NCBI GenBank assembly: GCA_043738765.1
Contig: JAYUFH010000188.1
Location: forward strand, 1-36,025
DNA length: 36,025 nucleotides
Source of the DNA: Pseudomonadota bacterium
Lineage (GTDB): Bacteria > Pseudomonadota > Gammaproteobacteria > Acidiferrobacterales > UBA6901
Direction: 5' to 3'
In this document: positions 5,542 through 26,494 of the stretch, in pieces
Position numbering within the stretch: the first letter of the stretch is position 1
How the letters are laid out: each line of letters begins with the position of its first letter
The notes under the pieces: generated by a model
What the model was told of the DNA's origin: nothing
Seen by the model: the letters and a program-made list of their open reading frames with translations, nothing else
Databases searched by the model: none
Program-made: the position numbers and the translations under genes

Positions 5542-5612
5542 GGCGCCATGGTAGTGAATAAACGCGCGCGGCGACAGCTCAACTTGGGATCAAGTGCGAC
5601 GCGACGCGAAAT

Positions 5613-5921
5613 TCAGAACCCCTCCTTGTGTGCGGTGTTCAGGGCGCCGAGCAAAATATGGAACGGGATGCGCGAACGCCACTGACGCACCAGGGGCATA
5701 AAGGGCAGATCCTGCTTGTCGCCAAACTTGTGCGTGCCGGCCACCACCTCCGCGCGCAATGTCTGCAGGGCTTGGGTGAGTTCCAGATAGACCGGCATTT
5801 GGCTGGCAAACTCCGCGATGCCGGCGTCCTCTTCTTCCGCGCAGCGTATCAGGTCTTCCATCTCGAAGATCGCCTGGCCCAGCAGCTCCAGATAGTCCTC
5901 GGTGGTTTTCGGTTGATACAT
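5613..5921 (-). CDS. Hypothetical acidic helical protein (102 aa)
   Basis: The track ORF 5613..6050(-) is trimmed to the ATG at 5919-5921, which is preceded by GGAGCAGGC (SD). This gives MYQPKTTEDYLELLGQAIFEMEDL... I recognised no family. Confidence 0.55.
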   Translation of the reverse strand: MYQPKTTEDYLELLGQAIFEMEDLIRCAEEEDAGIAEFASQMPVYLELTQALQTLRAEVVAGTHKFGDKQDLPFMPLVRQWRSRIPFHILLGALNTAHKEGF

Positions 5922-5997
5922 GCCTGCTCCTGGATTGACACAATGATTGCCCAGTTTAACGGGTCGGAAAACGAATATCCACGATGTCCGTCCTGGA

Positions 5998-6834
5998 TCA
6001 GGGTGCGACCTCGACCAGCGTGGCGGATTGCGCAAAGAACCATGCCACACCGAACCCGGCCATGAACGACCGATGCACCCGTATCAGTGGACTGTCCGCA
6101 AAGCGCGTGCCGGACAGATCGTCATAACGCGCGAAGGTACCGATCCAAAAATCCTTGTAGCGCTTGCTCAGCGCCAGGGTCAGGCGCGCGCCGCTGTAAC
6201 CGGCGCGCGCATCGTAGGCCGGGCGTGTGGGCGTGGCGAAGACCGGATCAACCTGATAGTAGTAGTCATGATTCTTCTCGCTGGCATACAACGGTCCTAG
6301 GGCTACGCCGAAATTCCAGCCACTGTGCGGCCCGATGTTCTTGATATCCAGATTGAGATGCGGGTTGAACACCCAACCGGCGCTGTTCACATGGGAAAAG
6401 TTCGTGGCAAACACCGCACGCAGGGGCAAACGCAATTGCACCACCGTGTCCGCGACACAGCTATGCCACAAGCAGACCTCCAGGGACGGGCCAACCTCGA
6501 CGGTGGGATCCAGATCCGGCATACCGGCACGTGCCGTGTTTTTGCGGCTCTTGGCCGGAACACCGGCATCGAAACTGAGGTCGAGCCTGACGTTCTCGGT
6601 GCGCAGTAATCGTCCATAAATGCCGGACCGATCCACCCGCAGAACCTTGCCGCGATAGACTATATAAGGTACCGGCAGGAGGTAGCCGCGCTGTTCATCG
6701 GAGCCACGATAATCCGGCGCCGTGAGGCCGCCGAATCCAAATCCCAGCTCCCACAACGGTTGCGTCTCGGCGACCGCGGACAACGGCATGCCCATCACCA
6801 GCACGAGGATCAACCCCCACCCAAATCGCTGCAT
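5998..6834 (-). CDS. mipA: MipA/OmpV-family outer-membrane protein
   Basis: Signal peptide MQRFGWGLILVLVMGMPLSAVA, then ETQPLWELGFGFGGLTAPDYRGSDEQRGYLLPVPYIVYRG, and a C-terminal aromatic-rich beta-barrel ending. The start is chosen at the ATG preceded by GAGGG; upstream in-frame starts at 6849 and 6876 are possible. Confidence 0.85.
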   Translation of the reverse strand: MQRFGWGLILVLVMGMPLSAVAETQPLWELGFGFGGLTAPDYRGSDEQRGYLLPVPYIVYRGKVLRVDRSGIYGRLLRTENVRLDLSFDAGVPAKSRKNTARAGMPDLDPTVEVGPSLEVCLWHSCVADTVVQLRLPLRAVFATNFSHVNSAGWVFNPHLNLDIKNIGPHSGWNFGVALGPLYASEKNHDYYYQVDPVFATPTRPAYDARAGYSGARLTLALSKRYKDFWIGTFARYDDLSGTRFADSPLIRVHRSFMAGFGVAWFFAQSATLVEVAP

Positions 6835-7027
6835 TAATCTTACCCTCATTATTATCGATGTCGCGGCGACAGCCAAAAAAAACCAGTCGGCGCGTGTCGT
6901 GCGCTACGCGGCACGCCCCACGCATGCCACGAACCCGCTGCATTGTAACTGCATTCCGCACCCGGGGCACAACCCCAGGGAACCTCTGAATAAGCCCCAT
7001 CTCGCTATGTACGGAATACAGCCGCTC

Positions 7028-7095
7028 GTAGGGTGGGCATCGCCCACCACACGGGGCGTCGATATATTCCGCTGGGTGGGCGATGCCCACCCTAC
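7028..7095. repeat. REP-A doublet
   Basis: GTAGGGTGGGCATCGCCCACCACAC (7028-7052) and GCTGGGTGGGCGATGCCCACCCTAC (7071-7095) are two hairpin units 18 nt apart. Confidence 0.85.
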
Positions 7096-7138
7096 TCGCC
7101 TGACCCAGCCGCTGTGCGTCCAGGAGGTTACCGCACCA

Positions 7139-7166
7139 TTTACATACAGCGTCATTCGATTATAGT
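7139..7166 (+). promoter_or_regulatory. Sigma70-like promoter for the peptidase/ATP-grasp operon
   Basis: TTTACA (7139-7144), 16-nt spacer, TATAGT (7161-7166), about 115 nt upstream of the ATG at 7281. Confidence 0.4.
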
Positions 7167-7280
7167 AAAAGCACGATAGGGGCTGGACCTCTGCCCATCA
7201 CCGGATTCCGGGAGGCCGTCGGAAAATCAGCGGCGGGCTTTGACGTACCAGCGCTAGCGACACACAGCACGAAACGAGCT

Positions 7281-8330
7281 ATGCAAAAGAAACGCAAAAA
7301 AATAGCGCGCCGTACGCCGCCCCGTGGCTGGTCATCCTGGCCAAAAGAAAAACTCCTGGATCTGCGCGTGCGTGACCTGGGTCTGCGCATCAACGGCAGC
7401 GAACTCAAACCACGACTGCGCCAACTGTACAGCGAGTTGCAACGACGCGGCTTTGTTTTCCGTCCGCACTTCTGGCTGTCGGATGAATGGTACTGTCCGG
7501 ATGGCGTCCCGGGTATCGCCATTCCGTTTTACCTGGCGCACCCGCGCCTGAAGAGACTTGAACGCGACTTCATGCTGGAAGTGGAAGGTGGTTCGCAGGA
7601 GGCCAGCATGCGCCTGCTGCGTCACGAAACCGGCCACGCACTGCTGAATGCCTACCAGCTGAACCGGCGGCGCGACTGGCAGCGACACTTCGGCAAATCC
7701 AGCACCAAGTATCCCGACACCTATCTGCCCAGGCCTTACAGCAAACGCTTTGTCATGCACCTGGCCAACTGGTACGCCCAAAGTCATCCGCATGAAGACT
7801 GGGCCGAGACCTTTGCCGTCTGGCTCAAACCCGGCTCTGATTGGCGCAAGCGTTATCGCGGCTGGCCGGCGTTGAAAAAACTCGAATACGTCGACGGCCT
7901 GATGAACGAAATCCGCGAGCTGCGTCCACGCATACGCAATACACGCGAACAACTTCCGGTGAGCAGTATGCGCATCACCTTGCGCGAATATTACGCCGAT
8001 AAAGAGGCGCGCTACGGCAAAGACAGCCCGGAGTTCTTCGATCGCGACCTGCGCCGGCTGTTCTCCGATGCGGAGGAACACCAACGCAACGAGAAGGCCT
8101 CGCGTTACATCCGCCGGGTACGCGTCGGGATTATCGACATCGTCAGCCGCTGGACATCCGAGTACGACTACCGTATCAACGAAGTACTCAAGGAGATGGT
8201 CGATCGCTGCGACGAACTCGACCTGCGCGTGGTGCGCAGCGAAGAGGAAATGAAACCCGAGATGGCCGCCTGTCTCACTATGTTGGTGATGAACAAATTG
8301 CACAGCAATGGATTCCACGTCTCCCTATGA
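7281..8330 (+). CDS. Putative zinc metallopeptidase (HExxH; Peptidase_Mx-like)
   Basis: 349 aa. Basic N-terminus MQKKRKKIARRTPPRGW. HExxH is present as LLRHETGHALLNAY. The overall sequence resembles the 'putative zinc-binding metallopeptidase' family as I recall it. Confidence 0.75.
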   Translation: MQKKRKKIARRTPPRGWSSWPKEKLLDLRVRDLGLRINGSELKPRLRQLYSELQRRGFVFRPHFWLSDEWYCPDGVPGIAIPFYLAHPRLKRLERDFMLEVEGGSQEASMRLLRHETGHALLNAYQLNRRRDWQRHFGKSSTKYPDTYLPRPYSKRFVMHLANWYAQSHPHEDWAETFAVWLKPGSDWRKRYRGWPALKKLEYVDGLMNEIRELRPRIRNTREQLPVSSMRITLREYYADKEARYGKDSPEFFDRDLRRLFSDAEEHQRNEKASRYIRRVRVGIIDIVSRWTSEYDYRINEVLKEMVDRCDELDLRVVRSEEEMKPEMAACLTMLVMNKLHSNGFHVSL

Positions 8331-9352
8331 AAAAACTGCGCGTCATGCTGCTGGTGCACTACAGCCTGGTCCCGCCGGAGGACCTGACCGATGTCAACGA
8401 TCCGCGCATGCCGACCTACGAGACGGAGTACGACGTCAAGACCGCATTGCTCAAACTCGGCCACGAAGTCCGGGTGATCGGCGTTTATGACGACTTGGCA
8501 CCGATCCGCAGCACCATCGAGGAATGGAAACCGCATATCGCCTTCAACCTGCTGGAGGATTTCGCTGGCAACAGCGCGTTCGACTACTATGTGGTGAGTT
8601 ATCTGGCGATGCTCAAGACACCCTACACCGGCAGCAATCCGCGCGGCCTGCTGCTGTCGCGCGACAAGGCCTTGTCGAAAAAACTGCTCACCTACCATCA
8701 CATCAACGTGCCGGATTTCATGGTCTTCCCGCACGGCAAGAAACTCGGCCGCCTGCGGCGTCTGCGCTTCCCCATGATCGTGAAATCCCTGATCGAAGAG
8801 GGCTCGGTCGGGATCGCCCAGGCGTCGCACGTGGAGAATGAGGCGCAATTGCGCGAGCGCGTGGTGCTGTTGCAGGAAATGACTCAAGGCGACGTCATTG
8901 CCGAACAATATATCGAGGGCCGGGAGCTGTACGTCACGCTGCTGGGCAATACGCGCCTGGATGTCCTGCCGTTGCGCGAACTGGTGTTCGACAAGGTCGA
9001 TGCAGGCCTGCCGCGCATGGCCACCTACAAGGTCAAGTGGGACAAGGAATATCGCGAACGCTGGGGCATCGATTATCAATCGGTACGCAACCTGCCAGCG
9101 GGCATGACCGAACGCATCACCCGGCTAAGCAAGCGCGCCTACCGCATCCTGGACCTGAGCGGTTATGCACGCCTGGATCTGCGTCTGACGCGCGACGGCC
9201 AGATCTACATCCTCGAGGCCAATCCCAACCCAGGTATCGCGCGCACCGACGAATGCGCCTCGTCGGCACTCAAGGCCGGCATCCACTATGAGGAACTGAT
9301 CCAGCGTATACTCAACCTCGGACTCAAGGCCGGCAGCGCGTCAACCGTTTAG
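8327..9352 (+). CDS. ATP-grasp ligase, D-Ala-D-Ala ligase-like family
   Basis: 341 aa. Its ATG overlaps the upstream stop (ATGA 8327-8330). It has a Ddl-like N-domain (MKKLRVMLLVHYSLVPPED...YDVKTALLKLGHEV), an ATP-grasp core (SRDKALSKKLL...PMIVKSLIEEGSVGI...EQYIEGRELYV) and a C-terminal ARLDLRLTRDGQIYILEANPNPG block. Confidence 0.85.
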   Translation: MKKLRVMLLVHYSLVPPEDLTDVNDPRMPTYETEYDVKTALLKLGHEVRVIGVYDDLAPIRSTIEEWKPHIAFNLLEDFAGNSAFDYYVVSYLAMLKTPYTGSNPRGLLLSRDKALSKKLLTYHHINVPDFMVFPHGKKLGRLRRLRFPMIVKSLIEEGSVGIAQASHVENEAQLRERVVLLQEMTQGDVIAEQYIEGRELYVTLLGNTRLDVLPLRELVFDKVDAGLPRMATYKVKWDKEYRERWGIDYQSVRNLPAGMTERITRLSKRAYRILDLSGYARLDLRLTRDGQIYILEANPNPGIARTDECASSALKAGIHYEELIQRILNLGLKAGSASTV

Positions 9353-9376
9353 CTGTCGATAAACAGGAATACACAC

Positions 9377-9781
9377 ATGACCGACGACATACTGCCCACA
9401 GACCGCCAACCCACCTTGCGCGTCGTACCCATGCCGGCGGACGCCAACGCCTCGGGCGATATTTTCGGCGGCTGGATCATGTCCCAGGTGGACGTGGCCG
9501 GTGGCGTGGTCGCCGCCCGCCGTGCCCAAGGGCGCGTCGTCACGGTGGCGGTCAACGCCTTCCAGTTCAAGAAGCCGGTGTTCGTCGGCGACCTGGTCAG
9601 CTTCTATGCCGAGGTGATCGGCGTCGGGCACACCTCCCTGACGATCAACGTCATCGTCTATGCCGAGCGTGGATTGCTGGGCACCGCCAAGCCCGGTGGC
9701 GTTGTCCGGGTCACGGAGGCTACGTTGACCTATGTGGCCCTGGACCACCACGGCGGCAAGCATCCTGTGCCACTATCCTAG
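9377..9781 (+). CDS. Acyl-CoA thioesterase, hotdog fold (YciA-like)
   Basis: 134 aa, MPADANASGDIFGGWIMSQVDVAGG...VTVAVNAFQFKKPVFVGDLV. SD AGGAAT precedes the ATG. Confidence 0.85.
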   Translation: MTDDILPTDRQPTLRVVPMPADANASGDIFGGWIMSQVDVAGGVVAARRAQGRVVTVAVNAFQFKKPVFVGDLVSFYAEVIGVGHTSLTINVIVYAERGLLGTAKPGGVVRVTEATLTYVALDHHGGKHPVPLS

Positions 9782-10146: not shown

Positions 10147-10959
10147 ATGGAAACCCTACGCCCCGCCGCCGTCGCCGGACTGTTCTATCCCGCTGACGCC
10201 ATGCAACTCAAGCAGTTGGTCACAACGCTGCTGGAAGCAGCGGCAGCGGCGCCGACCCTCGACACACCGCCGCCCAAGGCCCTGATCGCCCCCCATGCCG
10301 GCTACCTCTATTCCGGCCCCATCGCCGCGAGCGCTTACGCATCGCTGGCGATGGTGGCTGACCGCATTCATCGGGTCATTTTGCTTGGACCGGTACACCG
10401 CGTAGCGGCGCGCGGCCTGGCACTGCCCGGCGTGGAAGGTTTTGCCACTCCCTTCGGTATCGTCCGCATCGACGCCGACGCCGTGGCCACCATCCGCCAC
10501 CTGCCGCAGGTCATCACCAGCCCGCGCGCGCACGCCCAGGAACACTCCCTCGAAGTCCACCTGCCATTTCTGCAACAGATATTAAAAGACTTCATCCTGC
10601 TGCCCCTGGCGGTCGGCGACGCCACGACAGAGGACGTCGCCGAAGTGTTAAATCTGCTATGGGGCGGAGCCGAGACGTTGATCGTCATCAGCTCTGATTT
10701 GTCCCACTACCTGCCCTATGCGCAAGCGCGCGTCCAGGATGCCGACACGAGCGCCACCATCCTCGCCCTCACCCACGCGCCGATCCGTCACGAGCAGGCC
10801 TGCGGCGCTACGCCGATCAGCGGACTGCTGCACGCGGCGCGACAACATGGGCTGCAATCGCGATTATTGGATCTGCGCAATTCCGGCGACACCACCGACG
10901 ATCGTGACCGGGTGGTTGGATACGGGGCCTTCGCCTTCACCGAAGGAATGACCGCATGA
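10147..10959 (+). CDS. amrB: AmmeMemoRadiSam system protein B (Memo-like)
   Basis: METLRPAAVAGLFYPAD... and ALIAPHAGYLYSGPIAA (Memo-family signature). 270 aa. Confidence 0.9.
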   Translation: METLRPAAVAGLFYPADAMQLKQLVTTLLEAAAAAPTLDTPPPKALIAPHAGYLYSGPIAASAYASLAMVADRIHRVILLGPVHRVAARGLALPGVEGFATPFGIVRIDADAVATIRHLPQVITSPRAHAQEHSLEVHLPFLQQILKDFILLPLAVGDATTEDVAEVLNLLWGGAETLIVISSDLSHYLPYAQARVQDADTSATILALTHAPIRHEQACGATPISGLLHAARQHGLQSRLLDLRNSGDTTDDRDRVVGYGAFAFTEGMTA

Positions 10960-11525
10960 ACCAGGAACAGGGTACAACACTGCTGACCCTGGCGCGCAAC
11001 GCTATCGCGGAAGATCTGGGCGTCCCACGGCAGGCCTGTGCCGAGGCGCCCTGGCTGGAGAGTCCGGGGGCATGCTTCGTGACCCTGACGCAAAACGGTG
11101 AACTGCGCGGCTGTATCGGCAGCCTTGAGGCCAGTCGCTCCCTGCGTGCAGATGTGCAGGCCAATGCGCGGGCGGCGGCCTTTCGCGATCCACGCTTCCA
11201 ACCGCTGACGTTGGAAGACTACCCGAGCGTGCGCATAGAGGTCTCTGTGCTGTCCCCGGCGGCGCCCCTGCACGTTGATTCCGAGCCGCAGGCACGGGCA
11301 CAACTGCGCCCCGGTATCGACGGCGTCGTCCTGGAATACCGGCGACAACGCAGCACCTTCCTGCCCCAGGTGTGGGAACAACTGAAAGAACCACGCGCCT
11401 TTATGGATGCCCTGAAACAAAAGGCCGGATTAAACGCCGACTTCTGGCACGCCGATATAAAACTGTCGCGCTATAGCGTGGAAAAGTGGCGTGAAGGCGA
11501 GCACGATGAGCATCGACCGGAGTAG
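10956..11525 (+). CDS. amrA: AmmeMemoRadiSam system protein A (AMMECR1 domain)
   Basis: ATGA overlap with amrB (10956-10959). GACFVTLTQNGELRGCIGS is the AMMECR1 signature. Confidence 0.9.
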   Translation: MNQEQGTTLLTLARNAIAEDLGVPRQACAEAPWLESPGACFVTLTQNGELRGCIGSLEASRSLRADVQANARAAAFRDPRFQPLTLEDYPSVRIEVSVLSPAAPLHVDSEPQARAQLRPGIDGVVLEYRRQRSTFLPQVWEQLKEPRAFMDALKQKAGLNADFWHADIKLSRYSVEKWREGEHDEHRPE

Positions 11526-11527
11526 TC

Positions 11528-12613
11528 ATGCACGACACGCCTTATAAAGCACGTTGGTGGCACAGGCTCGACGACGGACGCCTGCAGTGCGATCTGTGTC
11601 CGCGCGACTGTAAGTTGCACGCAGGCCAGCGCGGCGCATGTTTCGTGCGCCAGCGCATCGGCGACGAGATGATCCTCACCACCTATGGGCGTTCCTCCGG
11701 ATTCTGCATCGACCCGATCGAAAAAAAACCCCTCAATCACTTCTATCCTGGTTCGAGCGTGCTGTCCTTCGGCACAGCGGGCTGCAATCTTGCCTGTAAG
11801 TTCTGCCAGAACTGGGACATCAGTAAATCGAAGGACTTCGACAAGCTGGCGGATCAGGCGCAACCAGAGGAAATCGCCACGGCCGCCAGGAATGCCGGTT
11901 GCAGGAGTGTCGCCTTCACTTACAACGACCCCACCATTTTCGCCGAATACGCCATGGACGTGGCGGATGCCTGCCACGCCTACGGAATTAAAACAGTCGC
12001 CGTCACCGCCGGTTATATTCATTCACAACCGCGCCACGCGCTCTATGCCAAAATGGATGCCGCGAATGTCGATCTGAAATCCTACAGTGAGGATTTTTAC
12101 TTCAAGCTCACCGGCGCGCACCTGCAACCAGTGCTGGATACCCTTCTGTACCTGCGGCATGAGACCGACGTGTGGCTGGAGATCACCACGCTGTTGATAC
12201 CGGGGAAAAATGACTCCGATGCGGAGCTCCGCGCAATGAGCGCGTGGATCGCCACACACCTCGGCGACAGCGTGCCACTACACTTCAGCGCCTTTCATCC
12301 GGACTACAAGATGCTCGACATCCCGGCGACGCCCCTGCACACCTTAAACCGCGCGCGCGACATTGCCCTGGCTGCGGGCTTGAAGTACGTCTACACCGGC
12401 AACGTGCACGACCACGCCGGCGGCACGACGTTTTGCCCCGCGTGCCGTGAACCGCTGATCGTGCGTGACTGGTATCAAATAGAAGATTACCGCCTGCATG
12501 ACGACGGCCGTTGCCTGGTATGCGATGTGCACCTCGCCGGTCGCTTCGAACACTACACCGGCCAGTTCGGCCATCGCCGCGTTCCAGTGTCGATACATCG
12601 TCCGAACACCTGA
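11528..12613 (+). CDS. amrS: AmmeMemoRadiSam system radical SAM enzyme
   Basis: Starts 2 nt after the amrA stop. CNLACKFCQNW (CX3CX2C) is present, and the C-terminal zinc-ribbon-like CPACREP...CLVCD is typical of this family. Confidence 0.92.
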   Translation: MHDTPYKARWWHRLDDGRLQCDLCPRDCKLHAGQRGACFVRQRIGDEMILTTYGRSSGFCIDPIEKKPLNHFYPGSSVLSFGTAGCNLACKFCQNWDISKSKDFDKLADQAQPEEIATAARNAGCRSVAFTYNDPTIFAEYAMDVADACHAYGIKTVAVTAGYIHSQPRHALYAKMDAANVDLKSYSEDFYFKLTGAHLQPVLDTLLYLRHETDVWLEITTLLIPGKNDSDAELRAMSAWIATHLGDSVPLHFSAFHPDYKMLDIPATPLHTLNRARDIALAAGLKYVYTGNVHDHAGGTTFCPACREPLIVRDWYQIEDYRLHDDGRCLVCDVHLAGRFEHYTGQFGHRRVPVSIHRPNT

Positions 12614-12728: not shown

Positions 12729-12817
12729 CTTACACAAAACTTTCGAGCGTAAGCGTGCACATCTATCTCGACTTACAGAAAATCTGTAAGGCAATTTATC
12801 CCTATGCACTATATAAT
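12729..12817 (+). promoter_or_regulatory. Candidate response-regulator boxes and -10 element upstream of the two-component operon
   Basis: CTTACA at 12729-12734 and 12772-12777. Perfect inverted repeat CTTACAG-AAAAT-CTGTAAG (12772-12790). TATAAT at 12812-12817, only 6 nt before the ATG at 12824, with no SD. Confidence 0.3.
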
Positions 12818-12823
12818 ATATCG

Positions 12824-13498
12824 ATGCATGTACTTCTCGTCGAAGACGACCCCATACTCGCAGATGGCATAAGGCGCTCGCTGCGCCAGTTGTCCTATTC
12901 CGTCGACTGGGTCAGCAACGGTACCGACGCGGATCTCCGTATTGCCGAGCTGAATTACGATGCGATTATCCTCGATCTTGGACTGCCCGGTATGGATGGT
13001 CTCGAGGTTTTGCGCAAACTACGCAAACGCGGCTCCCCTGCACCGGTGATGATCCTGACTGCGCGCGACAGTGTGCTGGACAAGGTCACCGGCCTGGACC
13101 TGGGCGCCGACGACTACCTCGTGAAGCCGTTCGATCTGGCCGAACTGGAGGCGCGCCTACGCGCGCTCATCCGGCGCGGCACGGGCGGAACCGGATCCAT
13201 ACTCGAATTCGCCAACCTGCGCTATGACATGGACGGAAGACGCGTCACCATCGATGGTCATGCCATCGAATTGTCTGCGCGCGAGCTGGCGGTTTTCGAA
13301 CTGCTTTCCATGCGTGCCGGCCGTGTCGTCAGCAAGGATCAACTGATCGATCACCTGTGCGAACGCGGTGAGTCCGTCTATCTCAATGCCGTTGAGGTGT
13401 ATGTGCACCGCCTGCGCAAAAAACTGGGAGGCGGCCTGGTCACAATCCGAACTATACGCGGCCTGGGATACTTGCTGGAGAAACCGCGTGTTATTTAA
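12824..13498 (+). CDS. OmpR-family response regulator (TctD/QseB-like)
   Basis: MHVLLVEDDPILADG..., acceptor region AIILDLGLPGMDG, LVKPF lysine, and a winged-helix C-terminus (VYVHRLRKKL...RTIRGLGYLL). The track ORF begins at an upstream GTG (12755), which adds an implausible 23-aa extension. Confidence 0.9.
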   Translation: MHVLLVEDDPILADGIRRSLRQLSYSVDWVSNGTDADLRIAELNYDAIILDLGLPGMDGLEVLRKLRKRGSPAPVMILTARDSVLDKVTGLDLGADDYLVKPFDLAELEARLRALIRRGTGGTGSILEFANLRYDMDGRRVTIDGHAIELSARELAVFELLSMRAGRVVSKDQLIDHLCERGESVYLNAVEVYVHRLRKKLGGGLVTIRTIRGLGYLLEKPRVI

Positions 13499-14867
13499 AG
13501 TCTCGTCCACCCGCGGACAACTCCTGGTGTACCTGCTCGTGCCCCTGTGTTTTTTGCTGCTGCTTAGCATGGTAGTCACTTATTACGTGGCAACGCGTTA
13601 TGCCAGGACCGAGGATGATCGTTCACTTTTCGATACAACGGAAACCCTCGCCCGCCAAGTACATTTTAATGATGGACAGGTCAAAGTGACACTTCCCCCG
13701 GCAGCCTGGGACATACTTGGATATGACCAGTACGACAAAATGTACTTTCAAGTTCGAGGCATAGACGGTAGTTTTATTATGGGAGACAAGGAATTGCCAC
13801 TGCCACCGAAAGAGCTGCGGACCATAGACAAGGCGATCTATTTTGACGCGACCTACCATGGCGAATCGGTCCGCGTCGCCTCGATCTACCTGCCAGTCGC
13901 GGACGACGACACACATGGCCAGGTACTTGTGCAGGTGGCCGAAACACTCGTCCAACGCAAACTCCTTGCGCAGGAGGTGCTTTCCAGCGTGACGCTATTC
14001 GGTCTTGCTTTAATTGTCCTTTCCGCGGCATCGGTCTGGATCGGCATCGGTCGGGCACTGGCGCCGCTAACACGTATCCGTTACGCCATCCAAAATCGAT
14101 CACCCAATGATCTTGGACCGGTGCCAGAAGACGCTGCTCCGACCGAGGTACGCCCCCTATTGCATGCGATCAACGACATGCTCGAACGTTTGGCAAAAAC
14201 GATGGCCGTGCAGCAGCGATTTATCGCCGACGCGGCACACCAGCTACGTACGCCGCTTGCCGGTATCAAGACTCAGGCCGACTATGCCCAGCGTGAGACG
14301 GATCAAACCGCGGTACGGCACGCGTTGCATCAGATTAGCCTCAGCGTGGATAGAACCACTCATCTGGCCCAGCAATTACTTTCCCTGGCCCGCGCCGAGG
14401 CCTCGCCCAACGGCGTCCCTAACGAAACTATCGACCTGAGCGAATTACTCCGATCCACCACCAGCGACTCTGTTCCGAACGCCGTGAGTAAAGATATCGA
14501 TCTTGGCTACGACGACCCTGGTCATCCCGAGTGGATACAGGGTAATGCAATATTGCTACGTGAAATGCTGACTAATCTTCTCGACAACGCCATACGCTAT
14601 ACCGAGCCAGGCGGCAAGGTTACCGTTTCCCTCAACCAGGACCATGGTCCCGTCATTAGTGTAGAAGACAACGGTCTCGGTATTCCGTCCGACGAACGCG
14701 TGCTTGTGTTTGAACGATTTCACCGCGTGATCGGCACGCCGGGCGACGGTAGCGGACTGGGCCTGGCCCTGGTTAGAGAGATCGCCAACATACACGGTGG
14801 CGAGGTATGGATAACCACGCCATCCTCTGGACACGGTGCGCGCATCAACGTCAGGTTCAAAAATTAG
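13488..14867 (+). CDS. Sensor histidine kinase (TctE/QseC-like, 2CSK_N-type periplasmic domain)
   Basis: A GTG start overlaps the regulator's end by 11 nt. Two TM segments flank a periplasmic domain. H-box FIADAAHQLRTPL, N-box LLDNAIRYT, G-boxes EDNGLGIP and GSGLGLALV. The start is uncertain. Confidence 0.85.
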   Translation: MLFKVSSTRGQLLVYLLVPLCFLLLLSMVVTYYVATRYARTEDDRSLFDTTETLARQVHFNDGQVKVTLPPAAWDILGYDQYDKMYFQVRGIDGSFIMGDKELPLPPKELRTIDKAIYFDATYHGESVRVASIYLPVADDDTHGQVLVQVAETLVQRKLLAQEVLSSVTLFGLALIVLSAASVWIGIGRALAPLTRIRYAIQNRSPNDLGPVPEDAAPTEVRPLLHAINDMLERLAKTMAVQQRFIADAAHQLRTPLAGIKTQADYAQRETDQTAVRHALHQISLSVDRTTHLAQQLLSLARAEASPNGVPNETIDLSELLRSTTSDSVPNAVSKDIDLGYDDPGHPEWIQGNAILLREMLTNLLDNAIRYTEPGGKVTVSLNQDHGPVISVEDNGLGIPSDERVLVFERFHRVIGTPGDGSGLGLALVREIANIHGGEVWITTPSSGHGARINVRFKN

Positions 14868-15123
14868 CGGCAAACCGCCAGATCTTCCGATCCAGATCGG
14901 CAAACAAAATAGATTTCATAACACCCCTATCTACACAATCCGCAGGTTCATATTTCGCTTTTTTACATCTAAATTCTTACACGAAGCTTTCATCTTCATT
15001 GCAAGTTCTTTGATTGATTCAATTTTTTATGCCCCGGCATTCACGTCAGCTGGCCGTAAGGTTTAGTCACTATTGTTCGTTAGAGGGGCTGTGAAGACAG
15101 CCAATAAGATAAGGAACTAAACG

Positions 15124-15648
15124 ATGACATACGCCGTTACCGATAAGGCCCCTCCAAATGCACTCGGAACACAGCTGCTAATCGAATTACACGATTGCCA
15201 TACAGAATTTTTTGATGACATCGAATGGGTCAGGGAAACCCTGGTTGAAGCCGCAAAACGTGCGCAGGCCACGATAGTGGATGTGGTATTTCACAAGTTC
15301 AACCCCATCGGAATTTCGGGCGTCGTCGTTATTTCAGAATCACATTTCGCCATACACACATGGCCGGAACACCGTTACGCGGCACTCGATATTTTTACCT
15401 GCGGCACAGTGTTGGACTCGAATGCGGCGATTGCCTACATTACTCGGCACTTCCGTAGCACACACTACGAGGTGACATCGCTGTCACGTGGATTGATGTA
15501 CCCGAAAAAAGGCAGACACCCACGCCCGGTGCACAGTCATGCAGCGCAGACAACGGCCGCGCCCGATGAGAAACGCGTTGTTTCCGCTGATCACCCGGTT
15601 GCCTTAAATCAAACTACATCCCCATCGGTGGCGTTATTCAGCAAATGA
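15124..15648 (+). CDS. speH: S-adenosylmethionine decarboxylase proenzyme, small pyruvoyl (SpeH/class 1) type, with about 50-aa C-terminal tail
   Basis: GTQLLIELHDC...GVVVISESHFAIHTWPEHRYAALDIFTCG, with the self-cleavage motif E72|S73. SD AAGGA lies 9 nt upstream. Confidence 0.88.
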   Translation: MTYAVTDKAPPNALGTQLLIELHDCHTEFFDDIEWVRETLVEAAKRAQATIVDVVFHKFNPIGISGVVVISESHFAIHTWPEHRYAALDIFTCGTVLDSNAAIAYITRHFRSTHYEVTSLSRGLMYPKKGRHPRPVHSHAAQTTAAPDEKRVVSADHPVALNQTTSPSVALFSK

Positions 15649-15713
15649 GGCGCCAGCAGAGCCAGGGACAGGTAAAACGTCAACCCAACGAAATCTGGAA
15701 GGAAATTAATAAA

Positions 15714-16817
15714 ATGAATACTGCCATTAAAACTCTCCCCCTGCAAAAAACGACCACCCCGGCGATTACTCGTCCGTACCCGCTCCCACCCCTGCCGGAA
15801 AATATGTACTATGTGGACGATCCCAGTCCTGAAATGCTGGGAAACGGGTCACTGCTTTTCGTAGAGGATTCGGATCCCTACGACTTATACAGCTACCGTC
15901 TTTCCAAGGTACTGTACAGCGGTAAAACTGCGTTTCAAAACGTCATGATCGCCGATACGCTGAATTACGGACGCGCCCTGATGCTGGACGGCGCCATCCA
16001 GAGCGCTGAAGACGACGAATCGCTGTACCACGAAATGCTGGTCCAGCCCGCCATGCTACGCCACCCGGAGCCACGCGACGTACTCATCATCGGCGGCGGC
16101 GAAGGCGCCACGCTACGCGAAGTACTCGTGCATCGTTCGGTGCGCTCTGTCACCATGGTCGATATCGATCGCGAACTCGTGGAATTGTGCCGCGAGCATT
16201 TACCGACCTGGCATTGCGGTGCCTTCGATGACCGGCGCGTGCGTCTGGTATTTGACGATGGACGGAAATTTCTTGAAAACGACGGTACGCGCTATGACTT
16301 GGTCATTATCGACCTAGTCGACATGCTCGACAACGGTCCGGCGCAAAAGCTGTACACGCGACAGTTCTATGAGATGTTACGGCCACGTCTGCGGCCGGAC
16401 GCCCTTGTCGCGATCCAGGGCATGGAGTTCTCGTTCGTGGACGACAAGGCGCACGCGGCGCTCACGCGTACCCTGCGCAGCGTGTTCCCCGAGGTCCATA
16501 GTTATCGCGCACATATTCCATCCTTCCTGTCGGCTTGGGGATTTATTCTCGCCTCAGATTGGTTCCGTCCCAGCGATTGGTCGGCGCAGGACATCGACCG
16601 GGCGATTCAAAACAAGCTCGGCTTGCACTGGCTGGATCATATCACGGGGGATTTTGTGCGCAGCAGTTTCAGTATGTGCAAGGAAACCCTGTTCCTGTTA
16701 TCGCAACCAGGACCGATACTGGAGGACGGTGTCGACTTTATTCCACCGCCCTACATTGAAGACGTTGAGCCCGTGTTCGTGCAATTTCCCATCCTCCCAG
16801 CCGAACACGATCGATGA
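15714..16817 (+). CDS. speE: Polyamine aminopropyltransferase (spermidine synthase family, Thermus-like GGGEGATLREV type)
   Basis: SGKTAFQNVMIADT...LMLDGAIQSAEDDESLYHEMLVQPAM...VLIIGGGEGATLREVLVH...MVDIDRELV...VIIDLVD. The start is chosen at the ATG after GGAAGGAAA. Alternatives are 15645 (ATGA overlap with the speH stop) and 15804. Confidence 0.88.
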   Translation: MNTAIKTLPLQKTTTPAITRPYPLPPLPENMYYVDDPSPEMLGNGSLLFVEDSDPYDLYSYRLSKVLYSGKTAFQNVMIADTLNYGRALMLDGAIQSAEDDESLYHEMLVQPAMLRHPEPRDVLIIGGGEGATLREVLVHRSVRSVTMVDIDRELVELCREHLPTWHCGAFDDRRVRLVFDDGRKFLENDGTRYDLVIIDLVDMLDNGPAQKLYTRQFYEMLRPRLRPDALVAIQGMEFSFVDDKAHAALTRTLRSVFPEVHSYRAHIPSFLSAWGFILASDWFRPSDWSAQDIDRAIQNKLGLHWLDHITGDFVRSSFSMCKETLFLLSQPGPILEDGVDFIPPPYIEDVEPVFVQFPILPAEHDR

Positions 16818-17683
16818 ACATTTCGGCGGAAATTCTGCGCTTTAATACAGACAATATTCTGCTGCGGCGTATCCGGTTTGTGGATAGCCGGCCAGACCAC
16901 ATCGATGTCGTTATGGAATTCGACGGTCTACAGCCGCGCTATGCCATCAGTGAAACCGTGGATTTCGATGGCCTTCCGCCGGTCGCCACCGGTCCCGAAC
17001 CAACGAACGAGTTGTATCTGGTGCTACTGCTTAGCGGTTCAGCCACACCGTTCGATCTGCAGCGGCGGGCGGAACAGTGGATGCTGAGGCCAGAGTTGCC
17101 GGGCGCCCGTGCGACGGTGGAACTGGTGACACACGGCGATCGGATACTCTGGCGCCCCGGTCGCACGCTTGTTATCGGTGCGTCCGAGCGTTTTGAAGAA
17201 CTGATGGCAGCGTTGGTGGATTTCTCCTTCCACGAGGGAGCACTGCGCCGGCTGGAAAACGCCATCGAAACGGACTACCGGGCCGCCGCTCAGGACATCG
17301 CCCTAACCCATCAGGTGGACGAAGCGGCTATCGCCCGCTGGCCGCATGTCAATTCCATGATCCGGGCGGTGACCAGTTATCGCATGGCCTTCGTCCCCCT
17401 CGAAGCGCGTCTGGAAAAATCGTCCAATCAATTGACCGGACCCGCCCGTATACTAGTTTCGGAACTGGTTATGCAAACCGATGTGACGGATCGCCTGTCC
17501 CTGCTCGACGACAAACTGGAGGTGCTCGAAGACCTTTACGAATCGGCCAATGACCGGATATCGGAGTACTCCTACTTTAAACGCGAATATCGCCTTGAGT
17601 GGGGAATACTCTTTGTCCTGGTACTGGAGGTGGTCATCATGCTATGGGAAATATATTACCTTGCGCGACCGGGTATGGAATGA
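16814..17683 (+). CDS. Hypothetical protein with C-terminal TM anchor; DUF155/RMND1 (COG1723)-like C-terminal region
   Basis: ATGA overlap with the speE stop (16814-16817). 289 aa. The C-terminus VTDRLSLLDDKLEVLEDLYESANDRISEYSYFKREYRLEWGILFVLVLEVVIMLWEIYYL matches the coiled region plus R-LEW plus TM pattern I recall for DUF155 proteins. Confidence 0.7.
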   Translation: MNISAEILRFNTDNILLRRIRFVDSRPDHIDVVMEFDGLQPRYAISETVDFDGLPPVATGPEPTNELYLVLLLSGSATPFDLQRRAEQWMLRPELPGARATVELVTHGDRILWRPGRTLVIGASERFEELMAALVDFSFHEGALRRLENAIETDYRAAAQDIALTHQVDEAAIARWPHVNSMIRAVTSYRMAFVPLEARLEKSSNQLTGPARILVSELVMQTDVTDRLSLLDDKLEVLEDLYESANDRISEYSYFKREYRLEWGILFVLVLEVVIMLWEIYYLARPGME

Positions 17684-17900
17684 CCCTCCCGCCGATCAAG
17701 CCCGGCGAAGGGAACAGCGCCGACCCAGAGTCCGTCCCGGTTGACACTGTGCGTGCCTGTGCGGGCCGGTCCTTGAGATTGCACACCGCGTAACACCTCT
17801 GCAAGCCCGGCTGAAGGCCATGCCACGACTCTTACAACCGCTCGACGGGTCGATATGATCTGAATATCCGATCATGCTTGCCCACACCCTGTGCTGAGAC

Positions 17901-17926
17901 CCAGCCCAAGTCCGAACTTGGGCTGG
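17901..17926 (+). other. Perfect 11-bp stem / tetraloop hairpin between the polyamine operon and metH
   Basis: CCAGCCCAAGT-CCGA-ACTTGGGCTGG. There is no following U-run, so its function is unknown (terminator, processing site or metH leader element). Confidence 0.5.
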
Positions 17927-18009
17927 CCGGCGGGGTCCTGTATGTTCCTAAGCTTTTGCAGCGACTTTTGGTACACTTGCGCGCAAATCAAGCAACCGGG
18001 TGACTTATC

Positions 18010-21000
18010 GTGGCGAATGCATCAACGGCCCGTGCGCAGCGGCTGGCCAAGCTCGAACAACAACTACAAGACCGCATACTGATCCTGGACGGTGCCATGG
18101 GCACCATGATCCAGCGCTACAAGCTGGAAGAGAAGGACTATCGCGGGGTGCGGTTTGCCGGGTATGCCCACGATCTAAAGGGCAACAATGACCTGTTGAC
18201 CCTGACCCAACCACAGATCATCAGCGACATTCATCACGCCTATCTCGACGCCGGCGCGGATATCCTCGAGACCAACACCTTCAACTCCACCTCCATCGCC
18301 ATGGCGGACTACCACATGGAGGACCTGGTGTATGAGTTGAACCGTGAGGGCGCGCGCCTGGCGCGCGCGGCGGCGGATGCGGCTGAAAAAAAACAACCGG
18401 CGCGACCGCGCTACATCGCTGGCGTACTCGGCCCCACCAATCGCACCGCCTCCATCTCGCCGGATGTGAACAATCCCGGTTTCCGTAACATCGGCTATGA
18501 CGCCCTGGTCATCGCCTACACCGAGGCCATTCGCGGCCTGTTGGACGGCGGCGCCGATGTGCTGCTGGTGGAAACCGTGTTCGATACCCTGAACTGCAAG
18601 GCCGCCCTGTTCGCCATCGACCAGTACTTTGAAGATCACAGCCTGCGTGTGCCCATCATGATCTCCGGCACCATCACCGACGCCAGCGGCCGCACCCTGT
18701 CGGGACAGACCACCGAGGCCTTCTGGAACTCCCTGGCGCACGCACGACCCTTAAGCATCGGTCTCAACTGCGCCCTCGGCGCCGATCAGTTGCGCCAGTA
18801 CGTGGAGGAGTTGTCGCGCGTCGCCAACGTGCACCTCAGCGCCCACCCCAACGCCGGCCTGCCCAACGAGTTCGGCGGCTACGACGAAACCCCGGAGACC
18901 ATGGCGGTGCATATAAAGGAATGGGCGCAGAGCGCCTTCCTGAATATCGTCGGCGGCTGCTGTGGCACCAGCCCGGCACACATCAAGGCCATTGCCGAGG
19001 CCGTGGCGAATATCAAGCCGCGCAAACGCCCGGTGATCGAGCCGCAGCTGCGCCTGGCCGGGTTGGAACCACTCAATGTCGGCCCGGATTCCGTGTTCGT
19101 CAACGTGGGCGAGCGCACCAACGTCACCGGTTCGGCCGTGTTCAAGAAACTCATCCTCAACAACGACTACGACAAGGCCCTGGACGTGGCGCGCCAACAG
19201 GTGGACAGCGGCGCACAGATCATCGACGTCAACATGGACGAGGCCATGCTCGACGGTGAGGCCGCCATGGCGCGCTTCCTCAGCCTCATCGCCTCGGAGC
19301 CGGACATCTCGCGCGTGCCGGTGATGATCGATTCGTCCAAGTGGACGGTGCTGGAATCGGGCCTCAAGTGCGTACAGGGCAAGCCGGTGGTGAACTCCAT
19401 CAGCCTGAAAGAAGGCGAGGAAAAATTTATCCGCGAGGCGCGCCTGGTGCGACGCTACGGCGCCGCCGTCATCGTCATGGCCTTCGACGAAACCGGCCAG
19501 GCGGACACGCACCGGCGCAAGGTGGACATCTGCGCCCGCTCCTACAAGATACTCACGCAGCAGGTCGGCTTCGCGCCGCAGGATATTATTTTCGATCCGA
19601 ATATCTTCGCCGTCGCCACCGGCATCGAGGAACACAACAACTACGCCGTGGATTTCATCGAGGCGACGCGGGAAATCAAGCGCGCCCTGCCCTACGCGCT
19701 GATCTCCGGCGGCGTGTCCAACGTGTCGTTCTCCTTCCGCGGCAACAACGCCGTGCGCGAGGCGATTCACTCGGTGTTTCTGTATCACGCCATCCAGGCG
19801 GGCATGGACATGGGCATCGTCAACGCCGGACAGCTGGCGGTGTATCAGGACATCCCCAAGGACCTGCTGGACTGCGTCGAGGACGTGATCCTGAATCGGC
19901 GCGCCGACGCCATGGAGCGCCTGCTGGCCCTGGCGCCCAAGTATGCCGGCGAAGGCGGCAAGGTGACGGTGCAGGACCTCACCTGGCGCGAGGCAACCGT
20001 GACCGAGCGCATGACCCATGCCCTGGTGCACGGCATCGACGAATACGTCAATCAGGATACGGAAGAGGTGCGCCTGCTGTTTGAAAAACCGATCCAGGTG
20101 ATCGAAGGCCCCCTCATGGACGGCATGAACGTGGTGGGCGATCTGTTCGGCGCCGGCAAGATGTTCCTGCCACAAGTGGTGAAGAGCGCGCGCGTGATGA
20201 AAAAGGCCGTGGCCTATCTGCTGCCCTACATCGAGGCGTCCAAGACCGCCGACAGCCGCGCCAACGGCAAGATCCTCATGGCCACGGTGAAGGGCGACGT
20301 GCACGATATCGGCAAGAACATCGTCGGCGTGGTGCTCGCCTGCAACAACTACGAGGTCATCGATCTCGGCGTCATGGTGCCCGCGAGCAAGATCCTGGAA
20401 GCCGCGCGCAGGGAAAACGTGGACATCATCGGCCTGTCCGGTCTCATCACCCCATCGCTGGATGAAATGGCGCACGTGGCCAAGGAGATGCAGCGCGAGG
20501 GCTTTACCATACCGCTGCTCATCGGCGGCGCCACCACCTCGCGCGTGCATACCGCCGTGAAGATCGCGCCGCATTACAAAGGCACAACGGTGTGGGTGAA
20601 GGACGCCTCGCGCGGCGTGGGTGTTGCCTCCAGCCTGCTGAGTGACGAGCTCAAGGCGGAGTTCGCGGCCAAGGTCTTAAGCGAATACGAGGAGGTACGG
20701 GCACGCCACGCCGGCAAGCAATCCAACGTGCGCATGTTGCCCCTGGCGGACGTGCGCGCCAACAAGAGCAAGATCGACTGGAACGGTTACGTCCCGCCGA
20801 CGCCAACCTTCCTCGGCATTAAGGCGTTGGATAACTACCCCCTGGATGAACTGGCGCGTTATGTCGATTGGACACCGTTCTTCCAAACCTGGGAGCTGAG
20901 CGGTCGTTTCCCCGCCATCCTCAAGGATGCGGTGGTGGGCGACGCCGCGACCAAGCTGTACGCAGACGCGCAGGAGATGTTGCAGCGCATTATCAAAGAC

Positions 21001-24955: not shown

Positions 24956-25576
24956 ATGTCCCACCGACTGATGATCGCCTCGCTACTGCTCCTGTTCGGC
25001 CTGTCCGGCTGCGGCTACAACAACCTGCAGGTGAACGACGAACAGATCAAGGCCAGCTGGGGTGAAGTGCTGAATCAGTATCAGCGGCGCGCGGATCTGG
25101 TGCCTAACCTGGTGTCCGTGGTCAAAGGATACGCGACGCATGAAAAGGATGTACTGACCCAAATCACCGAAGCCCGCGCGCGCGTCGGCAGTATCCAGGC
25201 GACACCCGAGCTGCTTAACGACCCACAGGCGTTTTCCCGTTTCCAGGCCGCCCAGGGTCAGCTGGGCTCCGCGTTATCGCGCCTGATGGTGGTGTCGGAG
25301 AACTATCCCAACCTCAAGGCGGATGGTCTATTCCGTGACTTGCAGGCGCAACTGGAGGGCACGGAGAACCGCATCACCGTGGCGCGCAACCGCTATATCA
25401 ACGCGGTGCAGACCTATAATGTGACGGTGCGTTCCTTCCCCAGCAATCTCACGGCCATGGCCATGGGCTACCATGTCAAACCGACCTTCAGCGTGGAAAA
25501 CGAAAAGGCCCTCGCCACCCCGCCCAAGGTGGATTTCGAGAAGCCGGCCACCAGCCCTACCCCCGCCGCGAAGTAA
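24956..25576 (+). CDS. lemA: LemA-family protein (lipoprotein-like signal, LSGC)
   Basis: MSHRLMIASLLLLFGLSGCGYNNLQVNDEQIKASWGEVLNQYQRRADLVPNLV... is typical LemA. Confidence 0.92.
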   Translation: MSHRLMIASLLLLFGLSGCGYNNLQVNDEQIKASWGEVLNQYQRRADLVPNLVSVVKGYATHEKDVLTQITEARARVGSIQATPELLNDPQAFSRFQAAQGQLGSALSRLMVVSENYPNLKADGLFRDLQAQLEGTENRITVARNRYINAVQTYNVTVRSFPSNLTAMAMGYHVKPTFSVENEKALATPPKVDFEKPATSPTPAAK

Positions 25577-25651
25577 CGCTGTCCGCGTCCGTGAGACAAT
25601 GACCCGAGAACTTCGCAACCTGTCCCTGCGCGCCACCGGCAGAGGTGCTGA

Positions 25652-26494
25652 ATGAATTTACGTCTCCGATCGCCCCTGCTTGCCGTCCTGTGGTGGTGCG
25701 CCTGCATGCTGCTGCCGACCGCGGCGCAGGCCGAGGCGGCCATCCCCGCGCTCAAGACTTACGTTACCGACCTGACGCGCACCCTGACGCCCAACCAGCA
25801 GGACAACCTGGTGCAACTACTGAAAAACCTGGACACGCGCAAAGGCAGCCAGATCGCGGTGCTCATCGTCCCCTCCACCCAGCCGGAGGCCATCGAGCAG
25901 TATTCCATCCGCGTCGCGGACGCCTGGAAGCTCGGTCGCAAAGGCATCGATGACGGCGCCCTGCTACTGGTGGCCAAGGACGACCACGCGGTGCGCATCG
26001 AGGTCGGTCGTGGCCTGGAGGGTGTGTTGCCGGATGCCGTGACCAGTCGCATCATCAACGAAATTATTATTCCGTTTTTCAAGCAAGGCGATCTCTACGG
26101 CGGACTCCAGGCGGGCAGCGTGCGCATGATACGCATCATCGAAGGCGAGCCCCTGCCGCCGGTGAGCGCCAAACAACCGGGTTGGTCCGGCGTGCAGGAC
26201 TATCTGCCGATCATCTTTATCGGCATTATCGCCGTGGGCGGCATGCTGCGTGCGATCTTCGGGCGGCTGATCGGTGCCGGACTTGTCGCGGGTATCGCCG
26301 GCATGATCTTTTGGGCGATCCTGGGTACGCTGCTCGGCGCCCTGCTGGTCGGCGTTATTATCTTTCTATTCATGCTGGCGGGCGGCGGACGCGGCTTCGG
26401 CATGGGCGGCCTGGGTGGTGGCATGGGCGGTGGTGGTGGTTTCAGCGGTGGTGGTGGTGGCTTCGGCGGAGGAGGCGCCTCAGGACGATGGTAA
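25652..26494 (+). CDS. TPM-domain protein (YgcG-like) with TM segments and a Gly-rich tail
   Basis: Signal peptide, then a TPM block (VTDLTRTLTPNQQDNL...GSQIAVLIVPS...LLLVAKDDHAVRIEVGRGLEG), 2 TM segments, and a GGGRGFGMGGLGGGMGGGGGFSGGGGGFGGGG tail. Confidence 0.88.
   Translation: MNLRLRSPLLAVLWWCACMLLPTAAQAEAAIPALKTYVTDLTRTLTPNQQDNLVQLLKNLDTRKGSQIAVLIVPSTQPEAIEQYSIRVADAWKLGRKGIDDGALLLVAKDDHAVRIEVGRGLEGVLPDAVTSRIINEIIIPFFKQGDLYGGLQAGSVRMIRIIEGEPLPPVSAKQPGWSGVQDYLPIIFIGIIAVGGMLRAIFGRLIGAGLVAGIAGMIFWAILGTLLGALLVGVIIFLFMLAGGGRGFGMGGLGGGMGGGGGFSGGGGGFGGGGASGRW

Follow-up and report, generated by a model that had tools for sequence, protein, structure and literature searches.

The 36,025-nt contig JAYUFH010000188.1 (assembly GCA_043738765.1; hereafter the window) of an uncultured gammaproteobacterium assigned to the Acidiferrobacterales carries, within a polyamine synthesis operon, a 289-aa open reading frame (ORF) at 16814..17683 of the forward strand, and poses the question of what a membrane-anchored protein does beside an aminopropyltransferase. 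The ATG of this ORF shares the tetranucleotide ATGA with the stop of the upstream 390-aa speE-type ORF (15645..16817), bearing out an earlier note on this DNA that had described the two genes as translationally coupled. The ORF call, homology and a predicted model together place the product, at the level of sequence, in the PA4775 family, and its gene is the third of a speD2-speE2-PA4775 module. The reading put forward in this work, tentatively and at somewhat less than even confidence, is that the PA4775-family protein is a CorA-like polyamine translocator or a membrane hand-off partner, acting by a mechanism that we infer. It draws on homology, genomic context, fold resemblance and residue conservation, and fits the surface polyamines attributed to the Pseudomonas aeruginosa operon.

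The 289-aa protein is 40% identical to P. aeruginosa PA4775 over 281 aa (BLASTP, E 9e-60). PA4775 was identified through its position between SpeE2 and the response regulator/histidine kinase pair, together with its description in the literature. The main P. aeruginosa cluster has 286-aa members, the most widespread single sequences of which occur on at least 1000 contigs, and the gene order around it is FMN_dh (lldD), an FAD oxidase, AdoMet_dc (160 aa), SpeE (375 aa), the 286-aa protein, a response regulator (221 aa), a histidine kinase (477 aa) and MerR. Because this order matches the published one of speD2 (PA4773), speE2 (PA4774), PA4775, pmrA and pmrB, the P. aeruginosa protein is taken to be PA4775. 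The two proteins are of the same length (286 and 289 aa), have an RxEW...E...E transmembrane motif in common and occupy the same slot, after a speE2-type gene that is itself preceded by a small AdoMet decarboxylase gene. The hosts differ, P. aeruginosa on the one hand and an uncultured gammaproteobacterium on the other, as does the position of the adjacent two-component pair: PmrAB lies downstream of the operon in Pseudomonas, whereas in the window a PmrAB-like pair (12755-14867) lies directly upstream of it.

The PA4775 family and its link to a polyamine operon are thus already known from P. aeruginosa, and the earlier note was wrong in holding that no fixed link between such a protein and polyamine synthesis had been described. 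The speD2-speE2-PA4775-pmrAB operon has been reported repeatedly (PMC7179292, PMC3572637, PMC13552734), with PA4775 named 'speH' in PMC13552734, and speE2 and PA4775 are co-transcribed. Surface polyamines of P. aeruginosa depend on the operon (PMC3572637), and a mutation in speE2 lowered surface norspermidine ~800-fold, as cited in PMC11107197. The minimum inhibitory concentration (MIC) of the dendrimer G3KL was raised only when all three genes, speD2, speE2 and PA4775, were co-expressed (PMC7179292). Through a polyamine coat on the envelope, the operon helps P. aeruginosa to tolerate aminoglycosides, cationic peptides and dendrimers. In the literature on this operon, no proposal for the function of PA4775 was found.

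Scans of the 289-aa protein and of 115 relatives against Pfam and NCBIfam gave zero family matches, catalytic or other, in keeping with the absence of a catalytic motif recorded in the earlier note. A word-indexed search with the same protein returned 22 close homologs, none of them named and none with Pfam domains. With clusters counted at 50% identity, an exhaustive profile search of 1.84 billion representatives retrieved 600 at E ≤ 1e-3, of which 490 remained at E ≤ 1e-10 and 275 at E ≤ 1e-30. All figures for conservation within the family are based on an alignment of 116 sequences, the window protein and 115 relatives. Conservation runs along the full length of this alignment, with R227 invariant and W113, E148, R190, E236, Y242, R248, E262, I265, L269 and E272 near-invariant. 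The homologs, the full-length conservation and the conserved short junction with the preceding gene identify 16814..17683 as a genuine gene and not a chance ORF. Hosts of the family include Gamma-, Beta- and Alphaproteobacteria, Acidobacteriota, many Planctomycetota and Cyanobacteria. Among members such as P0079, P0081 and P0111, some continue past the transmembrane segment in a ~110-residue extension that is presumably extracytoplasmic, and one carries a series of DHELAKS-like repeats inserted into the stalk helix immediately ahead of the transmembrane segment.

Gene neighbourhoods were compared across 38 independent loci, comprising six metagenomic loci and 32 loci with upstream DNA from GTDB, where a scan of one genome per species with an alignment of 22 sequences gave 34 loci; all were searched with the window proteins. 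A speE2-type gene stands directly upstream of the family gene in 30 of the 38 (6/6 metagenomic and 24/32 GTDB loci), so the adjacency to speE, whose recurrence the earlier note had wished to see surveyed, does recur. Compared with the SpeE of the window, the neighbouring SpeE proteins gave E-values of 1e-146 to 1e-187. Eight distinct loci have the speE stop and the start of the family gene overlapping in ATGA or GTGA (a distance of -4 nt), and in most of the other loci the two are +1 to +12 nt apart. A 98%-identical copy of the window protein is present in the gammaproteobacterial metagenome-assembled genome (MAG) GFS_6843, and cultured representatives are found in Pseudomonas nitroreducens, P. 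paraeruginosa ATCC 9027, P. boreofloridensis and two unnamed strains of the genus, all with the order AdoMet_dc, SpeE, family gene, response regulator, histidine kinase. The order speE, family gene, speH (the last being the decarboxylase gene) was seen in three cyanobacterial or Candidatus Obscuribacter loci (L032, L039 and L040, at about 4900-7300).

Two betaproteobacterial MAGs separate the speE2-type gene from its canonical counterpart. In L027 a canonical speH-speE pair (1423-2714) is followed ~2 kb downstream by a separate speE2-type gene and then the PA4775-family gene (4757-6651), and L028 is arranged likewise; the canonical SpeE of these loci matches the window SpeE at ~1e-61, against ~1e-160 for the speE2-type protein. 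Since the canonical pair stands apart, the PA4775 family is tied to the SpeE2 clade and not to SpeE generally. Two-component genes adjoin roughly a quarter of the loci, most loci being without an adjacent pair, and a pair like that of the window flanks the operon in Pseudomonas and in L007, L004 and L021. Three irregular arrangements were also seen. In a Pirellulales locus (L011, 4129-5422) speE is missing and the family gene comes straight after that for the AdoMet decarboxylase, where five other Pirellulales loci have speH, speE and the family gene; the missing speE could reflect a deletion or an assembly artefact. In L004 a 425-aa ORF with zero Pfam matches lies between speH and speE (5347-6624), and on the contig of P0010 the family gene, at its stop, shares 4 nt with a 306-aa ORF (8852-9772), again with zero Pfam matches.

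Eight loci have no speE upstream, and in four of them a PF01593 flavin amine oxidase gene is located directly upstream on the same strand (L034, 548-2290; L035, 2554-3975; L042, 4543-5955; L043, 4370-5842). The hosts of these four loci are Gemmata, Gemmataceae, Planctomycetota and Tepidisphaeraceae, the family members there are divergent, and neither speE nor speH was present within 6 kb. The closest solved relatives of the oxidase are putrescine oxidases (E 2e-11). As the genes around the oxidase and the family gene differ among the four loci, the two form a two-gene module. This pairing is a second, independent tie of the PA4775 family to polyamine or diamine chemistry, and the occurrence of a putrescine-oxidase-like partner in some Planctomycetota fits a membrane partner that handles polyamines over a subunit specific to SpeE.

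An AlphaFold2 model of the 289-aa protein, generated from a 22-sequence alignment, had a mean predicted local distance difference test score (pLDDT) of 87.2 and a predicted template modelling score (pTM) of 0.80. In the model, seven β-strands and one helix (residues 15-122) are followed by two long helices (124-165 and 176-201), a short helix (209-221) and a continuous 60-residue helix (224-284), of which the last ~20 residues are hydrophobic and form a single transmembrane segment (about 262-283). The cytoplasmic seven-strand α/β domain and its helices thus comprise about residues 15-221, and an extracytoplasmic tail of 5-6 residues remains at the other end. The C-terminus, ...KREYRLEWGILFVLVLEVVIMLWEIYYLARPGME, comprises the long helix, the motif R-LEW and the one transmembrane segment; the membrane anchor that the earlier note had read from a coiled segment, R-LEW and a single C-terminal transmembrane segment therefore agrees with both the sequence and the model.

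Foldseek searches of the PDB with this model returned exclusively CorA, ZntB and CmaX structures at ranks 1-26 (E 2.2e-4 to 4.5e-2, probability 0.75-1.00), with generic coiled coils following only at E ≥ 0.2. The CorA-type alignments span about 230-335 columns, and some of the matches are crystal structures of the cytoplasmic domain only. The cytoplasmic α/β domain, the long helices and the stalk into the membrane of these transporters match the window model over nearly its full length. CorA continues into its GMN loop where the window protein ends, which stops after the equivalent of the pore-lining first transmembrane helix: GMN was found in the last 60 residues of none of the 116 family members (0/116), and neither the model nor the alignment has a second C-terminal transmembrane segment, a single hydrophobic stretch being present at about 263-282. 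The interior-facing side of the helix is acidic in CorA and, by prediction, in the window protein, which differs from CorA in having three conserved acidic positions within the transmembrane helix and in its genomic partners, polyamine enzymes instead of metal homeostasis genes. The predicted fold suggests a one-helix, acid-lined version of CorA.

The acidic residues of the long helix are arranged regularly. Within helix 224-282 their strongest periodicity in the family alignment is 3.6 residues, which puts them on one helix face, as a stripe formed by positions 229, 232/233, 236, 239/240, 243, 247, 251, 258, 262, 272 and 279. Inside the hydrophobic segment this face consists of E262 (94% acidic), I265, L269, E272 (97% acidic), M276 and E/D279 (82% acidic). 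Family members have a mean net charge of -8.5. The transmembrane segment is preceded by basic residues at 253, 256, 257 and 260, as would be expected if the N-terminal domain were cytoplasmic and the external tail very short.

In the translocator reading, the PA4775-family protein would assemble, as CorA does, into a funnel-shaped oligomer whose acidic axis would conduct thermospermine or its product norspermidine across the inner membrane, or hand it over there. Cytoplasmic synthesis by SpeD2 and SpeE2 would thereby be joined to the periplasm and the cell surface, and the membrane-embedded glutamates would be candidates for substrate binding or proton coupling. The alternative direction would be uptake, which could feed the oxidase in Planctomycetota. 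We infer the oligomerisation, the orientation of the acidic face, the substrate, the direction and the energy coupling. Known bacterial polyamine exporters include the SMR-type MdtJI, and reliance on a membrane-embedded glutamate is a hallmark of proton/cation antiport in SMR proteins, which have four transmembrane segments and no cytoplasmic domain. The movement of polyamines out of the cytoplasm proposed here would resemble that by MdtJI; the architecture is entirely different and no homology is claimed. A bolder form of the reading, in which the family is a CorA-like, glutamate-ringed funnel that serves as a dedicated conduit for long polyamines and a new transporter class derived from a truncated CorA scaffold, we consider unlikely, with perhaps a quarter of the weight on its side. 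Were it true, the conduit would supply the step, so far missing, by which polyamines induced through PmrAB reach the envelope of P. aeruginosa.

Four points have no precedent in the literature searched and are new to that extent: how broad the family is, its coupling to SpeE2 specifically, its alternative coupling to amine oxidases and its predicted truncated, glutamate-lined CorA-like architecture. For PA4775 this provides a specific hypothesis that can be tested with mutants, set within a widespread family with SpeE2 or oxidase neighbours and a predicted CorA-like architecture with a single transmembrane segment.

Several observations weigh against a CorA-like translocator. The TM-scores of the model to CorA-type structures are low (0.21-0.40); these modest values indicate resemblance at the level of the fold, with helix packing that differs in the monomer model. 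PF01544 (CorA) gave zero matches for the window protein and the 115 relatives, and sequence searches of the PDB with the single protein and with the 116-sequence profile (E ≤ 10) gave chance-level matches and no CorA chain. Five single helices would make an unusual pore. At an inside-negative potential a passive cation pore favours uptake, and export would need a coupling that is purely hypothetical. Basic partner proteins might just as well dock on the acidic face, or this face might be a cytoplasmic sensor of polyamines or Mg2+. Neither speE nor an amine oxidase lies directly upstream in 4 of the 38 loci, and deletion of PA4775 left the MIC of colistin unchanged (PMC13552734).

The explanation that stands up best beside a translocator is a membrane tether or regulatory subunit, which would recruit or activate SpeE2 (or the amine oxidase in Planctomycetota) at the inner membrane or alter its product, for example by enabling the formation of norspermidine; we regard this as rather unlikely, though as a serious contender. 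Tight translational coupling implies matched stoichiometry of the two proteins, the dendrimer phenotype requires all three genes, and the large, conserved and highly charged cytoplasmic domain could serve for docking. The SpeE2 proteins themselves have conserved N- and C-terminal extensions that are absent in canonical SpeE. The biochemistry of the P. aeruginosa enzyme also bears on this explanation. PA4774 was identified by experiment as a thermospermine synthase that forms no norspermidine from diaminopropane, and SpeE2 alone in Escherichia coli yielded thermospermine and no norspermidine, whereas in P. aeruginosa the operon is needed for norspermidine (PMC11107197). The authors of that study suggest that an oxidase or dehydrogenase, as yet unknown, turns thermospermine into norspermidine. 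A tether would leave unexplained the near-invariant transmembrane glutamates, which are on the same face as the acidic stripe of the stalk, and the CorA-like funnel architecture. The partner, moreover, varies by lineage between an aminopropyltransferase and a flavin oxidase, which makes a shared small-molecule ligand likelier than a specific protein-protein regulatory fit.

Given that CorA, ZntB and CmaX are the only significant fold matches, the protein might instead be a CorA-like channel for divalent cations (Mg2+), or an intracellular Mg2+ sensor, induced along with polyamine synthesis under Mg2+ limitation. An acidic funnel would draw any cation, Mg2+ limitation induces the Pseudomonas operon through PmrAB (PMC7179292, PMC9746822), and a PmrAB-like pair is adjacent in the window. 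A Mg2+ channel is nevertheless rated as improbable because the GMN motif and the second transmembrane segment are missing in 116/116 members. It is further disfavoured by the lack of a match to the CorA profile of Pfam, by conserved partners that are polyamine enzymes of two unrelated families, and by the absence of an adjacent two-component system from most loci.

The earlier note had assigned the protein to the DUF155/RMND1 family from the appearance of its C-terminus. DUF155 proteins (PF02582; RMND1, Rmd1/Rmd8, Sif2/Sif3, Mrx10) have an α/β domain, long helices and a single C-terminal transmembrane segment, as does the window protein, which is without their eukaryotic or mitochondrial context. 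The comparison with PF02582 that the note had suggested gave no match for the window protein (E ≤ 1), the 116 family members (E ≤ 0.01) or the Pseudomonas orthologs (E ≤ 10). The gathering score of this profile is 27 bits, and human RMND1, used as a positive control with a query 100% identical to the database RMND1, scored 174.8 bits. Three Pseudomonas orthologs (P0293, P0295 and P0315) are named 'DUF155 domain-containing protein' in UniRef, yet had no match in the PF02582.19 scan nor in the precomputed Pfam column (PF02582.20).

The C-terminal likeness itself was recovered. In hhalign comparisons of the family with RMND1, both profile-sequence and profile-profile, the last ~65 residues only were aligned (E 3e-4 to 6e-4, probability 30-38%), over a stretch that lies outside the PF02582 domain; the RMND1 profile was shallow, the homologs listed being tetrapods only, and the result is therefore weak. 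The motif L-E-x2-I-x3-[LI]-x2-E is common to both proteins (RLEWMIVILITIE in RMND1 and RLEWGILFVLVLE in the window protein), in its longer form R-L-E-W-x-I-x3-[LI]-x2-E, and the R-LEW...E motif on the C-terminal helix and transmembrane segment is conserved in the 116 members. When a global alignment to RMND1 was forced, the N-terminal columns obtained were all of low confidence. RMND1 itself modelled poorly in AlphaFold2 (pLDDT 49), with a shallow alignment of tetrapod sequences as input; the order of secondary-structure elements in this model is similar to that in the window protein model, and Foldseek with the RMND1 model gave no significant match, with CorA/ZntB at ranks 10-42 (probability 0.08-0.51). 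The DUF155-type C-terminus of the earlier note is thus supported by the RMND1 motif, the hhalign alignments and the UniRef names, but the similarity stops short of the DUF155 domain: a remote relationship is possible, and the profile that defines membership does not include the protein.

That the protein is a bacterial DUF155/RMND1 member acting at ribosomes or RNA, with polyamine as the ribosome ligand linking it to speE, is very improbable, since the C-terminal motif, the similar order of elements and the automatic names of some orthologs are set against a PF02582 profile that fails for all members tested, a low-probability alignment confined to the region outside the Pfam domain, an RMND1 model too poor for fold comparison and compared loci with no conserved ribosomal or RNA genes in their neighbourhoods, and since DUF155 homology, even if real, says nothing on ribosome function in bacteria. 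Nothing found points to ribosomes. If the likeness to RMND1 were true homology, DUF155 proteins might serve in the mitochondrial inner membrane as CorA-like conduits for cations or polyamines, with a single transmembrane segment, and not be ribosome factors as such. The present results might also offer a structural way into the DUF155/RMND1 family, for which a link to mitochondrial disease in humans is known. Literature searches that combined CorA with DUF155 or RMND1 turned up no paper connecting the folds.

The other genes of the operon in the window are consistent with these assignments. The 390-aa SpeE2-type aminopropyltransferase (15645..16817, forward strand) matches PF01564 (Spermine_synth, E 6e-44) and PF17284 (Spermine_synt_N, the tetramerisation domain), and scores 237.9 bits against the NCBIfam speE equivalog, below its cut-off of 260. 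It is 67% identical to PA4774 over 338 aa; because PA4774 is a thermospermine synthase by experiment, the window 'speE' probably encodes a thermospermine synthase rather than a spermidine synthase, which corrects its local annotation. Its first ~46 residues fall outside the alignment with PA4774, and translation may actually begin at the ATG at 15714 (M24). Upstream, and overlapping the speE start by the 4 nt ATGA, is the gene for a small SpeD2/SpeH-type S-adenosylmethionine decarboxylase (15124..15648, forward strand; PF02675 (AdoMet_dc), E 2.5e-37; TIGR03330 above cut-off), with an AAGGA Shine-Dalgarno sequence 9 nt upstream.

The two-component pair of the window consists of an OmpR-family, PmrA/QseB/TctD-like response regulator (12755..13498, forward strand; Response_reg and Trans_reg_C) and a QseC/PmrB-like sensor histidine kinase with a 2CSK_N periplasmic domain (13368..14867, forward strand; 2CSK_N, HAMP, HisKA and HATPase_c). 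PmrA, QseB and TctD are the top NCBIfam matches of the regulator, every one below cut-off, and its real start is probably the ATG at 12824; the start of the kinase is uncertain, with the GTG at 13488 as a candidate. Between the kinase and PmrB of P. aeruginosa the identity is 30% (E 2e-45). The pair is PmrAB-like and, with model scores below the equivalog cut-offs, no more than a candidate ortholog of PmrAB. A PmrA-box-like pattern, YTTAAK-N5-YTTAAK, had zero matches upstream of speH and zero enrichment, and is uninformative. A scan for promoters and terminators and an Rfam search of 14000-18500 returned nothing relevant within the operon.

Three further groups of genes in the window were noted. 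A MipA-family outer-membrane protein (PF06629, E 6e-42) is encoded at 5998-6876 on the reverse strand, ~8 kb from the polyamine operon; MipA-MipB of P. aeruginosa are reported to be polymyxin sensors (PMC10936184). The nearness of this gene to the operon may be a coincidence. Directly upstream of the two-component pair, three overlapping genes at 10147-12613 on the forward strand encode Memo (PF01875), AMMECR1 (PF01871) and radical SAM (PF04055) proteins, which make up an AmmeMemoRadiSam trio. A gene of the LemA family and, after it, one for a TPM-domain protein occupy 24956-26494 on the forward strand and form a common, poorly understood membrane pair.

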